Shown here: piece by piece, positions 14,014 through 19,877 of the stretch
Position numbering within the stretch: the stretch's first letter is position 1
Layout: each line of letters opens with the position of its first letter
Source of the DNA: a virus
IMG/VR virus record: IMGVR_UViG_3300045988_119600
Strand: one strand, 5' to 3'
DNA: 30,429 nucleotides
Translations under genes and position numbers: made by a program
Notes under the pieces: generated by a model
Told to the model about the DNA's origin: nothing
The model's input: the letters and a program-made list of their open reading frames with translations, nothing else
Database searches by the model: none

Positions 14014-15618
14014 ATGGCTAATTTATTTGAGCTCCTTTCCAAAGAAGATTGCGAAAAGATTGAAGAGTATATTCGTAATTTTGCGGGCCTCGGCGGAGAT
14101 AGTTCCGATATGAAGGCATCTCTCGACTACATTCTCCGCTTTTGGGCTTATAATAAGCAGAATCTTTATAAGATGTTGGGAGATAATCTTATCATTTCTC
14201 GTAAGGTAAGTTATTCTCGTTCTTATGAAGAGATGAGTGATGATTATTATGATTATTTCGGTAGAAATGGTGATGGTTTCGAATTCCGAAATACCTTTAA
14301 TAATAAGGTAAGAGATCTTTATCTCAGGACAACCATCTCTAATACTCAGTATCTTAATTTGGCAAGTCTTTTGGATGTTGAACCTTTAATGTCTAACATC
14401 TATGATGGTGAATCTTTTAAATTCACTTATAATAATAAAACTCTTATGATTAATAAGGGCATGAAGCTTAGTAAGATGCTTGGTAAGCTGAGTGATATTT
14501 TGGAGATTGACCGCGATGTTTATGAAAAGTTCCGTATCGCTCATTCTCAGTTCCTCAATCAGAAAAATATTTCTGGTGAACTTTGTCTTTCTGTTCATCC
14601 TCTTGATTATATCACTATGAGTGATAATAATTGCGGTTGGGATTCTTGTATGAGATGGCAGAATGGTGGTGGCGAATATCGTCAGGGAACCGTTGAGATG
14701 ATGAATTCTCCCATTATCCTTGAAGCTTATCTTAAATCTGATAAGGACATGGAAATTTGTTATAAGGTTGGTAAGCCTGTGATGTGGAATAGCAAGCGCT
14801 GGCGTGAACTTTTCATCGTAGATGAAAGTCTTATCCTTGGTATCAAGGGTTATCCTTATTGTAATGATAACCTTGAAAGTATTTGTCTCGCTTGGATCAA
14901 GAAGCTCGCTGAACAGAATCTTGGCTTTGGTCCTTATACCAAGTATTTAAATAAGATTCAGAATTACAGTAATAATATTATTGGTGAGTTTGATAGAAAT
15001 ATTTATTTCAATCTTGATACCAATTTCATGTATAACGATATCTATTCAGAGCATAATGCTTACGTTTCCACTAAGATTCCTACGGACGAAAACATTGATC
15101 TTAACTACTCGGGTGAATCTGAGTGTATGTGTTGTGGAGAGCTTCTTGATGATTCTCTCTTCGATGATAGAGAGAATAACGCGGAAATGACTATCTGTCC
15201 AAGTTGCTCGGGTGCAGTAAAGTGCGATAAGTGTGGCGATATTGTTTATGTCGATGACACTTATAATGTCGATGGAAAAACTTACTGCGCTTATTGTTAT
15301 GATGAAAGCACAGAAGTTTGTCCTTGTTGTGAAGTTCGTAAAGATTATGATGATATGAAGCAAATCCGTCTTCGATTCCAAAAGAAGCCAGTTGGATTCT
15401 ATGCGGATATTTGTTGGGATTGTTGTGGAGATAAAAAAGTAAAAACCTTCTTCACTGGTGAAATTGAAGAAGAAAGAGACGGTTGGCGCTCTAATTATTA
15501 TGTCGATGGAGAAACTCTCACGGAAAAGGGCAGAGACCTCTTTGACATTAATGAAGAGGAATTTATTTCTTGGGTGAATGGCACTAACCCAAATCAAAGA
15601 CCTTCTTTGATTTTTTAA
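14014..15618 (+). CDS. Large protein, paralog A. Unknown N-terminal domain with an LC(L/F)SVHPLD core, plus a C-terminal multi-CxxC zinc-ribbon array
   Basis: Shares ELCLSVHPLDYITMSDNNCGWDSC…GEYRQG…WNSKRWRELF with the 18105 product. C-terminus reads CMCCGELL…CPSCSG…CDKCGD…CAYCYDE…CPCCEV…CWDCCGDKK. Confidence 0.8.
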   Translation: MANLFELLSKEDCEKIEEYIRNFAGLGGDSSDMKASLDYILRFWAYNKQNLYKMLGDNLIISRKVSYSRSYEEMSDDYYDYFGRNGDGFEFRNTFNNKVRDLYLRTTISNTQYLNLASLLDVEPLMSNIYDGESFKFTYNNKTLMINKGMKLSKMLGKLSDILEIDRDVYEKFRIAHSQFLNQKNISGELCLSVHPLDYITMSDNNCGWDSCMRWQNGGGEYRQGTVEMMNSPIILEAYLKSDKDMEICYKVGKPVMWNSKRWRELFIVDESLILGIKGYPYCNDNLESICLAWIKKLAEQNLGFGPYTKYLNKIQNYSNNIIGEFDRNIYFNLDTNFMYNDIYSEHNAYVSTKIPTDENIDLNYSGESECMCCGELLDDSLFDDRENNAEMTICPSCSGAVKCDKCGDIVYVDDTYNVDGKTYCAYCYDESTEVCPCCEVRKDYDDMKQIRLRFQKKPVGFYADICWDCCGDKKVKTFFTGEIEEERDGWRSNYYVDGETLTEKGRDLFDINEEEFISWVNGTNPNQRPSLIF

Positions 15619-15624
15619 AAAAAA

Positions 15625-15708
15625 TAATATATAATATTTATGTAAGGTAAAGGAAGAGATACTTCCTAAAAATAAAATTGTTATTTATGAAAGGTTAAGG
15701 TAAAAATT
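15625..15708 (+). promoter_or_regulatory. Conserved promoter (TTGATT-17-TATAAT) with a longer leader containing the ggaagagatacttcc hairpin
   Basis: Motif copy. Confidence 0.5.
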
Positions 15709-16125
15709 ATGACTAATGAAGTTAAGGTTTCTAAGCGCGATTATCTGACCGCGATTATCGGAGCTATGCACACTGGTGAGATCAAGTATGATCCCAATGA
15801 CGTGATCGCATTTTGCGAGCATGAGATTGAGCTGCTTGATAAGAAGACTGCCAAGGCTAAGGAGCGTGCGGCCGCCAAGCGTGCTGAGGGCGATGAGCTG
15901 ACTGAGCAGATTTATAATGTTCTTTATGACGATGAGTTTATGACCATTCCTGAGATCGTCAAGGCTCTCGGCGATGAGAGTGTCTCCGCACAGAAAGCAA
16001 GCTATCGACTCCGCACTCTTGTGAGCGAGAACCGCGCGGAGAAGACTGAGGTTTCTGTTCCGGGCGCTGATGGCGGTAAGGCTTCCAAGAAAGTGGCTTA
16101 TCGCAAGATTGTCGCTGAGGACTAA
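15709..16125 (+). CDS. GC-rich moron-like gene (138 aa), possibly a small DNA-binding protein
   Basis: About 50% GC in an AT-rich background, with its own promoter upstream and a strong terminator downstream. The MTIPEIVKALGDESVSAQKASYRLRTLV segment looks HTH-like. Confidence 0.7.
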   Translation: MTNEVKVSKRDYLTAIIGAMHTGEIKYDPNDVIAFCEHEIELLDKKTAKAKERAAAKRAEGDELTEQIYNVLYDDEFMTIPEIVKALGDESVSAQKASYRLRTLVSENRAEKTEVSVPGADGGKASKKVAYRKIVAED

Positions 16126-18255: not shown

Positions 18256-19559
18256 TTAAATTTTTTCACGGTCATTTAATTTATGAATGGCCGGAAAAGG
18301 TATCTTTTTCTTTAGATGATAAAACTAAAGAGCATCGTCTTGAGGAGTTTCTTGAAACAATTAATTATACTTATAATAATGAAGACTTAAAAGATTTTAT
18401 TTCAGTAAATAAAGAAGGATTCTTTAATAATACAGTTATAGATACTTATTTTTATAAGGATAAAAAGATTCCAAGAGGAATGAAATTAGTTAAGGCTTTT
18501 AAGTATTTTGAAGAGAATCCGCGCTCTTTGGAAGATATTCAAAATTACGCAAGTCGTATTATCCAAGAGGACAAGATTGAGGGAACATTATGTTTCTCAG
18601 TTCATCCTTTGGATTTTCTGAGCGTGAGTGAAAATACTTATAATTGGCGTTCTTGTCATGCGCTTGATGGTGAATACAGAGCAGGAAATTTATCTTACAT
18701 GGTAGATAGAAGCACTTTTATTTGCTATTTGCGCGGAGCGGAGAATCAGAAACTTCCGCATTTCCCCGAAGACGTTCTTTGGAATTCTAAGAAATGGCGT
18801 ATGCTTCTTTACATGGAAGATAAACGACGCGGTTTGATGGCTGGTCGCCAATATCCTTTTATGACAACTAATGCTTTAATTAAAATTAAAGATATTATCA
18901 ATACTTTTGATAAGACTTTTCAGTTGCGTGAATGGGTAGACGGAGGTATTACTACTGTCTCTAATAGGATGAGTAGCACTCCTTTTGGAGAAGAGACTAT
19001 CGGATTATCTGAAACATGGATTCCTATTTTGTCTCGTTTATATCCTATTAGTGATATCGTTGAAGATATTGGTGAGCATACTCTTCAATATAATGATTTG
19101 CTTTATTCTTCTTGCTATTTGCCTATTTATAGTTTAAAATTGTATTATTATCCATTTGACAAGACTGATCTTCCTCATTGGTCTATTGGTGGTGATGTTC
19201 CTTGTTTACAATGCGGTAAAACTATAATTGAAAGTGGAGAATATATGCGATGCGGAGATTGTGAATTCAGTTATGGAGTAAATGAAGACGATAACTATGG
19301 TTATTGCGCTTGTTGCGGTTCTCGTATAATTCTTGATGAAGCAAATTCCGTAGGCGATGAGAATGAATTAGTTTGCGATAGTTGTGCGGATACTTATTGT
19401 AAACGATGCGAATGTTGTAATAATTTATATTATACAGAAGATATTCACTATCATAAAGGGACTGATATGTATTTATGTCCTTGGTGCTTTAGAGATGCTG
19501 GTGAAGAAAAAGTTAATAATTTTAGGTCTTTAAAAGACTTTATACATAATTTTAGTTAA
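18105..19559 (+). CDS. Large protein, paralog B of 14014-15618 (same conserved N-terminal core plus C-terminal zinc-ribbon array)
   Basis: TLCFSVHPLDFLSVSENTYNWRSC…GEYRAG…WNSKKWRML, then CLQCGK…CGDCEF…CACCGS…CDSCAD…CKRCECC…CPWC. RBS ggagga; 151-nt overlap with the upstream gene in another frame. Confidence 0.75.
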   Translation: MYWRISQMSYDFDIESIREQFNKVISYSQGISNPKTEELFERFLEAKKDLIKFFHGHLIYEWPEKVSFSLDDKTKEHRLEEFLETINYTYNNEDLKDFISVNKEGFFNNTVIDTYFYKDKKIPRGMKLVKAFKYFEENPRSLEDIQNYASRIIQEDKIEGTLCFSVHPLDFLSVSENTYNWRSCHALDGEYRAGNLSYMVDRSTFICYLRGAENQKLPHFPEDVLWNSKKWRMLLYMEDKRRGLMAGRQYPFMTTNALIKIKDIINTFDKTFQLREWVDGGITTVSNRMSSTPFGEETIGLSETWIPILSRLYPISDIVEDIGEHTLQYNDLLYSSCYLPIYSLKLYYYPFDKTDLPHWSIGGDVPCLQCGKTIIESGEYMRCGDCEFSYGVNEDDNYGYCACCGSRIILDEANSVGDENELVCDSCADTYCKRCECCNNLYYTEDIHYHKGTDMYLCPWCFRDAGEEKVNNFRSLKDFIHNFS

Positions 19560-19571
19560 GGAGAATTAGAT

Positions 19572-19877
19572 ATGGCTAAAGGTGCAGTAGCTAAGGAACA
19601 AATCGCTAAGAAAATGGCGGAAGTATTTGGCGCTGATTGGATCGGCGAGCGAGATAAAAAGTATTATCTTTGGGCTAATGAAAATGGTGAGCGAATTCAG
19701 ATTGCTATTAGTATGACGTGCCCAAAGACTCCGATCGGTGAAGCAGGTGCAACCGCGGATTCAAATGTTTTGAATTTTGAAGATGGGGCAACTGCAGGCG
19801 GAGAAACCCCAATTGAAATCACTATAGATGAAAAGAAAAATATTGCCGATTTAAAGGCAAGATTGGGATTAAGTTAA
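19572..19877 (+). CDS. Hypothetical protein (101 aa)
   Basis: RBS taaggaga. Followed by the terminator. Confidence 0.65.
   Translation: MAKGAVAKEQIAKKMAEVFGADWIGERDKKYYLWANENGERIQIAISMTCPKTPIGEAGATADSNVLNFEDGATAGGETPIEITIDEKKNIADLKARLGLS

Follow-up and report, generated by a model that had tools for sequence, protein, structure and literature searches.

Among the GNAT-fold enzymes described from phages, Rac of the phiKMV-like phages acetylates RNA polymerase alpha and Mom of phage Mu is responsible for an acyl modification of adenine; as described in that work, neither is reported to be paired with a peptidase (PMC7824862). We analysed a 30,429-nucleotide stretch of viral DNA (IMG/VR virus record IMGVR_UViG_3300045988_119600, hereafter the window), in which a block of genes at positions 14,014 to 19,877 encodes two large paralogous proteins, A and B, and a metallopeptidase, all three bearing CxxC cysteine pairs. 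The block had been singled out in an earlier note, made from the DNA letters alone, which proposed that the three genes form a functionally linked system. PHROGs already lists the homologues of A and B in Enterococcus phages as families without an assigned function. Literature searches turned up neither a publication nor a curated model describing the family, and nothing specific on a phage module of zinc-finger GNAT proteins and a peptidase.

We conclude that there is a functional association between A, B and the zinc-tailed peptidase. The invariant active site of the peptidase, the occurrence of its zinc tail only beside A/B-type genes and the complete lack of discordance between A and the peptidase were all counted in favour of a joint module. 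The block further encodes a 138-aa winged helix-turn-helix (wHTH)-like protein and two proteins named p266 and p101.

Paralogues A and B

The two large proteins proved to be homologous over almost their entire length, as the earlier note had recognised from their common motifs. They aligned by BLASTP with an E-value of 7e-18 and 30% identity across the core. Profile-profile comparison gave a probability of 100% and an E-value of 4.4e-43 over 387 columns (A34-465 to B26-455), an alignment that extends from the helical N-terminal region through the core into the cysteine array. The open reading frame (ORF) of B had initially been listed from a TTG codon at 18105; its start was reassigned to the ATG at 18126, giving 477 aa, since orthologues begin MSFDIREIRKQF and a GGAGG lies upstream. 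Paralogue A consists of a helical domain (aa 1-127), the core (about aa 128-366), the CxxC array (aa 371-470) and a C-terminal domain. Where the earlier note had counted five or more CxxC pairs, six were found in each paralogue (at residues 371, 395, 404, 425, 436 and 467 of A and 360, 376, 394, 417, 428 and 451 of B), their cysteines being invariant or nearly so in the family alignments.

S193, P196, D198, W209, C212, G220, G225, K261, R264, Y280 and P281 (A numbering) are invariant throughout the superfamily, also in the Enterococcus paralogues. These map to the end of beta1, an enlarged alpha1-alpha2 loop, beta3 and the end of beta4, and enzyme-like residues are also found after beta5. In GNAT enzymes these elements form the active site. 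In the structural models of A and B the elements follow the order beta1-alpha1-alpha2-beta2-beta3-beta4-alpha3-beta5-(alpha4)-beta6, as in GNAT. With moderate confidence, and on the strength of these models, we describe the core as a derived GNAT-like fold, and claim no membership of an acetyltransferase family.

The core had no curated match in Pfam, NCBIfam, PADLOC or PDB sequences, in agreement with the earlier note, which could not assign it to a known family. No fold match was seen for the 2-oxoglutarate oxygenase, nucleotidyltransferase or ADP-ribosyltransferase folds that the note had suggested for it. Confident homology to structural proteins, which the note had named as the outcome that would speak against its proposal, was not found either; a structural-protein origin was rejected as being without support, and the genes sit behind host-type promoters. 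The defence and anti-defence models of PADLOC yielded nothing: A, B, the peptidase, p266 and p101 had no match, and the 138-aa protein had a chance-level match to LmuB only.

The A-family profile matched LIM domains of CRP2, CRP1 and FHL proteins (E-values of 2e-5 to 1e-2), whereas the B-family profile matched generic zinc ribbons and not LIM. Foldseek matches in BFVD include a phage "LIM domain containing protein". The LIM consensus is C-x2-C-x16-23-[HC]-x2-[CH]-x2-C-x2-C-x16-21-C-x2-[CHD], and LIM domains usually mediate protein-protein contacts. The array of A shows a similar pattern of cysteine pairs, C-x2-C-x20-C-x2-C-x5-C-x2-C-x17-C-x2-C, but differs in that its ligands are all Cys, the spacer between fingers is 5 instead of 2 residues and its three sites amount to one and a half LIM units.

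The zinc-tailed peptidase

In Pfam the peptidase scored below the gathering threshold of every family it resembled (M20, 22.1 against 24.6 bits; M28, 20.9 against 21.3; M42, 16.7 against 23.2). It matched PHROG families annotated as "peptidase" at 1e-27 and, weakly, the acetylornithine deacetylase and PepT models of NCBIfam. An alignment was made with homologues from gut phages, Enterococcus phages, Lactococcus phage P087 and Thermus phage P23-45. The complete MH-clan metal set, H58, D88, E115-E116, D144 and H222 (in NEHSH), falls on invariant columns of this alignment, and the motifs invariant in the homologues are the H of AHLDTV, the D of GADDRAG, the EE of DEEIGG, the D of LDR and the H of NEHS. 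As the ligands and the catalytic Glu are all invariant, the full MH-clan active site is retained.

The ligands are spaced by 30, 28, 28 and 78 residues (30 from H58 to D88 and 78 from D144 to H222). In M42 peptidases the first His is separated from the bridging Asp by a PDZ-like insert, and in M20 peptidases the Glu/Asp ligand from the last His by a dimerisation domain. The 30- and 78-residue spacings leave no room for either insert, which points to an M28-like build. The earlier description of an M42/M20-like metallopeptidase was thus right as to the MH-clan active site, but its family label gives way to a single-domain, M28-like architecture.

The zinc ribbons that had been noted at the end of the peptidase correspond to a tail of four CxxC pairs, which is conserved in all 13 of the 13 gut-phage orthologues examined. 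Every peptidase examined that lies beside A/B-type genes has such a tail, of two to four pairs, whereas the two stand-alone phage homologues examined (from P087 and P23-45) have neither the tail nor A/B neighbours.

Distribution and conservation of the cassette

Homologues of A and B form 1611 and 2282 clusters at 90% identity, respectively. None of these roughly 3,900 clusters has a name, a Pfam domain or a solved structure. The families were found on phage-like contigs only, mostly from Clostridia-associated gut samples, and many of the homologues lie on contigs of 125-200 kb. Among species-representative bacterial genomes, all 32 matches were contigs of metagenome-assembled genomes, several of them 150-176 kb and phage-sized, and no clear cellular homologue was seen; most of these contigs had been binned with Clostridia or other Bacillota.

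Synteny was examined in 80 loci with a B homologue from IMG/VR, on related contigs some 80-200 kb long. In this set the genes keep the order wHTH-p266-[peptidase]-B-p101, with p266 always accompanying B (80 of 80 loci), p101 in 78, the wHTH gene in 74 and the peptidase in 65. Co-occurrence across phage genomes, which the earlier note had proposed as a check, was assessed for A and the peptidase in the 67 loci with enough upstream sequence: both genes were present in 57, both were absent from 10 and none was discordant. No A paralogue was detected by hidden Markov model (HMM) on the B strand in six A-less loci, within the flanks examined.

The only isolated phages with homologues of A and B, detected by tblastn at about 25% identity, are the ~140-kb Enterococcus phages EF1, EF5, VRE9_1-4 and H1. 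Their cluster encodes an A-like protein of 623 aa, a small wHTH-like protein, a B-like protein, the peptidase and a second B-like protein. The wHTH-like protein, of 80 aa, has sub-threshold winged-helix matches and occupies an equivalent position. In VRE9_2 (PP680568.1) the genes of the module are CDS0071-0073 and CDS0078. Neither p266 nor the 454-aa protein encoded just upstream of our block has a match in these phages, so that their cluster provides independent support for the association. The proposed functional link therefore stands in that the three genes are co-conserved, also in distant Enterococcus phages, but they do not form an obligatory trio, as one clade lacks A and the peptidase. 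We conclude that B, p266, the wHTH gene and p101 make up the more constant core of the cassette, and that A and the peptidase are an accessory pair.

Proposed function and alternative explanations

As the best explanation of these data we tentatively propose that A and B are early acyl- or aminoacyl-transferases which, with an N-terminal trimming enzyme, are zinc-docked on a shared target. A and B would be active transferases whose target is a macromolecule, most probably a protein of the host or the phage, and would attach an acyl or aminoacyl group to one of its amino groups. In each, the six CxxC pairs would form a LIM-like array holding about three zinc ions. The peptidase would be an active M28-type di-zinc aminopeptidase with a two-zinc ribbon tail, trimming the N-terminus of the substrate of A and B and thereby creating or removing the acceptor, while the zinc modules that all three enzymes share would hold them together or attach them to a common target. 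Counted for this explanation were the paralogy of A and B, their enzyme-like invariants, the GNAT order of elements, the precedent of phage GNATs such as Rac that modify host proteins (PMC7824862), the LIM match of the A array, the Enterococcus cluster, the sigma-70 promoters and the flanking terminators. As the earlier note suggested, the block may act in anti-defence or host takeover.

Several observations weigh against this proposal. The core found no GNAT family match by sequence or profile (Pfam, NCBIfam, PDB sequences), and the CoA pyrophosphate motif Q/R-x-x-G-x-G/A between beta4 and alpha3 is replaced by [KR]-x-Y-P-[YF]; at this site A has K-G-Y-P-Y-C-N and B has R-Q-Y-P-F-M-T, with Y-P invariant and the glycines missing. 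The models are poor in the loop with the highest conservation, where pLDDT is below 50 for the core of B and 76-78 for A, and residues H195 and R223 of A are not retained in distant members. In one clade B occurs without A and the peptidase, with a uracil-DNA glycosylase in the peptidase slot; the 10 loci without A and the peptidase appear to form one clade (B at 30-37% identity), and the pattern of co-occurrence may go back to one evolutionary event. The synteny is mostly that of related phages, where vertical inheritance could explain it. Lastly, direct evidence that the target is a protein is lacking.

A module directed at nucleic acids is a serious rival, although we judge it somewhat unlikely. 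In it A and B would be zinc-finger-guided GNAT-fold modifiers of bases or nucleotides in DNA or RNA, as Mom is, or would act in DNA repair or replication with the wHTH-like protein, p266 and p101. CxxC arrays can bind nucleic acids, and weak profile matches were obtained to the cysteine-rich region of PriA and to ribosomal and RNA-binding zinc ribbons. The adjacent wHTH-like protein (74 of 80 loci) and the Cys-cluster protein p266 fit such a role, and Mom provides the example of a phage GNAT-fold DNA modifier (PMC7824862). The glycosylase of the clade without A and the peptidase also belongs here. It is a family-1 enzyme found between p266 and B in at least two loci (L079, 9253-9996; L070, 9227-9976), with the GQDPYH and HPSPFS motifs and a Pfam UDG match at 2e-13, and in L070 a DnaQ-like exonuclease is encoded about 1.5 kb downstream. 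The p266-B slot is variable, however, and a homing-endonuclease-like insert lies nearby in L002, so the glycosylase may be an unrelated insertion. This L002 gene (15790-16515, in a relative with 94% identity) lies between B and p101, codes for 241 aa with CxC/CxxC-rich repeats and is probably a homing endonuclease; a 344-aa repeat protein of L070, with 10 in-frame TAGs, resembles it. Moreover, the block contains no other base-modification genes, and a partner peptidase that has an intact active site and a zinc tail of the same kind speaks for a peptide or a protein as the substrate. That the MH clan includes N-acyl-amino-acid deacylases, to which the weak acetylornithine deacetylase and PepT matches would correspond, leads to a further possibility, a pathway making or detoxifying a metabolite, in which A and B would form amides with aminoacyl-tRNA or acyl-CoA as donor (as in enzymes of the Fem, Sbb17 or MccE type) and the peptidase would be a deacylase of the ArgE or DapE type. 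A 16-gene tRNA array 3.5 kb downstream could be fitted to such a pathway. We consider it improbable: matches of the amide-forming type come with any GNAT-like query and ranked no higher than ordinary acetyltransferases, small-molecule enzymes do not usually have long zinc-finger arrays or a large helical domain, and the cassette has no transporter or other biosynthetic genes.

The genes may also form no system at all, being unrelated early genes that are adjacent by descent, with A and B GNAT-like but catalytically inactive, serving as scaffolds or regulators, and with CxxC tails that act as generic stabilisers. All 80 loci do come from related contigs, the peptidase family stands alone in many phages, B persists without A or the peptidase and the canonical CoA motif is absent; zinc ribbons are common in phage proteins, and the window encodes another at 6603-7073. 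Yet the Enterococcus phages repeat the cluster in the absence of a p266 or upstream-gene match, the peptidase has its zinc tail only beside A/B and is never discordant with A. The 3' end of the peptidase gene runs into B, for 130 nt here and 46 nt in the related loci L004 and L006, an overlap that suggests translational coupling, and the strict conservation of D, C, K, R and Y fits catalysis or binding of a specific ligand better than a scaffold. We regard the absence of any system as distinctly unlikely. A bolder form of the transferase proposal, which we think unlikely, is that A and B represent a phage-only GNAT branch that lost the CoA loop and gained an invariant Asp/Cys/Lys/Arg/Tyr centre, uses a non-CoA donor (e.g. 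aminoacyl-tRNA from the tRNA array of the phage) and, zinc-docked with the aminopeptidase, rewrites protein N-termini as a takeover of the N-degron type or puts a new kind of modification on macromolecules.

Organisation of the block and neighbouring genes

In the ORF list the block is entirely on the + strand, and three hairpins mark its borders and an internal division (Table 1). Perfect TTGACA-17-TATAAT promoters occur six times in the window against 0.03 expected by chance. Two are within the block, upstream of p266 and of the peptidase, in keeping with the earlier description of a separately promoted gene; the other four lie at 11794-11822, 23287-23315, 23857-23885 and 25325-25353. Those at 11794 and 23287 have the same 29-nt sequence, suggesting that an early-promoter cassette read by the primary sigma factor of the host has been reused. 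Bracketed by terminators and equipped with host-type promoters, the block is probably expressed early. The phage is large, TAG-recoded and from gut Bacillota, a host with which the sigma-70/sigma-A promoters and GGAGG ribosome-binding sites fit.

Table 1 Features of the block and its borders
Feature	Position	Strand	Description
Hairpin, intrinsic-terminator-like	13906..13941	+	14-pair stem then T-run; closes the upstream gene and forms the 5' border of the block
Paralogue A, 534 aa	14014..15618	+	Helical N-domain, GNAT-like core, six CxxC pairs, C-terminal domain
GNAT-like core of A	14395..15111	+	Alignments; secondary-structure order in model
138-aa wHTH-like protein gene	15709..16125	+	Weak HTH_24 match; orthologues in related loci
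Hairpin, intrinsic-terminator-like, 3' of wHTH gene	16139..16167	+	13-pair stem then T-run
Perfect sigma-70-type promoter, 5' of p266	16244..16272	+	TTGACA-17-TGnTATAAT, 12/12 matches
p266, 266 codons, TTG start	16297..17097	+	In-frame TAG at 16399-16401 read as Gln; homologue alignment
Perfect sigma-70-type promoter, 5' of peptidase-B-p101 unit	17087..17115	+	TTGACA-17-TGnTATAAT, 12/12 matches
MH-clan (M28-like) di-zinc peptidase, 368 aa, GTG start	17149..18255	+	Pfam, PHROG and NCBIfam matches; invariant ligands; low-complexity end
Peptidase tail	about 17923-18123	+	Four CxxC pairs; conserved in homologue alignment
Paralogue B, 477 aa	18126..19559	+	A-type layout; core about 18423-19175; six CxxC pairs about 19203-19487
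p101, 101 aa	19572..19877	+	Always after B; 78/80 loci
Hairpin, intrinsic-terminator-like	19881..19910	+	13-pair stem then T-run; 3' end of the block

The 138-aa gene has a GC content of 0.50 and a third-position GC content (GC3) of 0.55, against a GC content of 0.36 for the whole window, and a GAG:GAA ratio of 15:1 against 33:78 in neighbouring genes. It has orthologues in L004 and L006 and in 74 of the 80 loci; the latter 74 have a mean GC3 of 0.50 against 0.26 for B, in genomes of 30-42% GC. The conserved position and conserved GC3 bias show that the gene is no recent insertion; it is GC-rich, as had been observed, but not the moron it had been taken for. A hidden structured RNA behind the GC bias was rejected (folding z-score of 0.09, no Rfam match). 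The protein matched HTH_24 below threshold (E-value of 0.047), with a possible winged helix in its C-terminal half.

The ORF of p266 had been listed from a GTG at 16450. It was extended to the TTG start given in Table 1, which has AAGGAG upstream, since homologues start MKYCVS...RQP with Gln at the TAG position. Its family comprises 1665 representative clusters at 50% identity, all of about 260 aa, with invariants that include RPED, WPGNLNLL, VDNR and a C-x3-C-x5/6-C-x2-C cluster. No match to p266 was found in Pfam, PHROG or isolated phages, and a deep profile search, saturated by close relatives, reached no distant annotated relative. Similarly, p101 had no Pfam or PHROG family match.

The 454-aa protein gene just upstream of the block (12520-13884) is syntenic in about half of the related loci, and the C-terminal half of its product resembles gp39 of Bacillus phage G and a vB_BceM_WH1 protein labelled "virion structural protein gp208". 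Elsewhere, the window encodes a calcineurin-like phosphoesterase (4995-5729), a protein with a zinc ribbon and a tRNA_anti-like OB-fold (6603-7073) and a DUF5052 protein (10430-11101). The tRNA array spans 23358-30079 and has an AAA/nSTAND3-type ATPase gene inside it (28680-29819). Its first gene, 23358-23428, is tRNA-like (44 bits against Rfam tRNA) and was given a two-base anticodon by ARAGORN; on visual inspection it has a six-base loop, CTTCAA, closed by a 5-bp stem, TAATC/GATTA.

Recoding of TAG

The earlier note had remarked on an internal amber codon in the separately promoted gene. This TAG is indeed present in p266, but it is no oddity of that gene, since recoding of TAG to Gln spans the lineage. 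Where orthologues of A, B, p266 and p101 have in-frame TAGs, other orthologues have Gln codons at the aligned positions, and public protein calls for related contigs translate TAG as Q. The two genes after the block contain four (19997-20551) and five (20568-21980) in-frame TAGs; the product of the latter belongs with glycine-rich ALK_LTK_GRD proteins. Recoding of this type (code 15) is known from gut phages. None of the 16 tRNAs of the window has a CUA anticodon. The TAG-recoded gut phage phAss-1 (PMC10607447) was judged not closely related, and tblastn of the isolated-phage collection returned no such genome. Gene calling in this lineage must use TAG as Gln.

Comparison with known systems

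Among the searches made, the combination of a helical domain, a derived GNAT-like core lacking the CoA loop and a triple zinc-finger array appears to be a new architecture, as predicted from sequences and models. The context likewise appears new, with paralogous A/B pairs beside a zinc-tailed M28-like peptidase, the fold itself being one from a known superfamily. Our analysis gives the core a testable fold assignment and defines a conserved cassette with its variable parts. If A and B are indeed active transferases coupled to an aminopeptidase, this would be a new enzyme pairing for the manipulation of host or phage macromolecules by phages. Experiments are feasible, as cultivable Enterococcus phages carry the corresponding module.

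With the GNAT superfamily (e.g. PDB 4lua, 1ygh, 6nas) A and B have no detectable sequence relationship. Apart from the missing Q/R-x-x-G-x-G/A motif, they differ from it in an alpha1-alpha2 loop that is ~25 residues longer and contains an invariant Cys, and in their added helical and zinc-finger domains. The aminoacyl-tRNA-dependent enzymes of GNAT fold, FemA/FemX, Aat and ATE1, ranked no higher as matches than ordinary acetyltransferases, and Fem and ATE1 have tandem GNAT domains per chain where A and B have one each. Rac and Mom may serve as functional models for a protein-directed and a nucleic-acid-directed role, respectively, by analogy only. Foldseek searches of BFVD also linked A to two uncharacterised proteins (595 and 653 aa) of Dickeya phage JA29. 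The related Dickeya phage LIMEstone1 encodes large F-Lim "homing endonuclease" proteins of similar size with N-terminal Cys pairs and a C-terminal domain that looks GNAT-like by eye. HMMs of A and B had no match in the LIMEstone1 genome at E<10, and the JA29 lead, a similarity we take to be structural only, was set aside as having no bearing on function.

The peptidase is closest to PHROG 4191, 21791 and 34186 (annotated "peptidase"; e.g. Thermus P23-45 gp56, Lactococcus P087 gp23), which have the same H-D-E-D-H set and catalytic Glu in a single domain with M28-like spacing; only the versions beside A/B-type genes bear a tail of CxxC pairs. The families PHROG 18912 and 29713 of the Enterococcus phages are true homologues of B and A, respectively (B matched phrog_18912 at 1.3e-18), with Foldseek E-values of 2e-16 and 1e-12 against A/B and the core motifs S-x-x-P-x-D, W-x-[ST]-C, G-x-Y, K-x-W-R and Y-P in common. 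The Enterococcus phages differ from the present one in having three paralogues, one of them without CxxC pairs, and in the replacement of H195 and R223 of A; as here, however, the paralogues stand beside a zinc-tailed peptidase and a wHTH gene.

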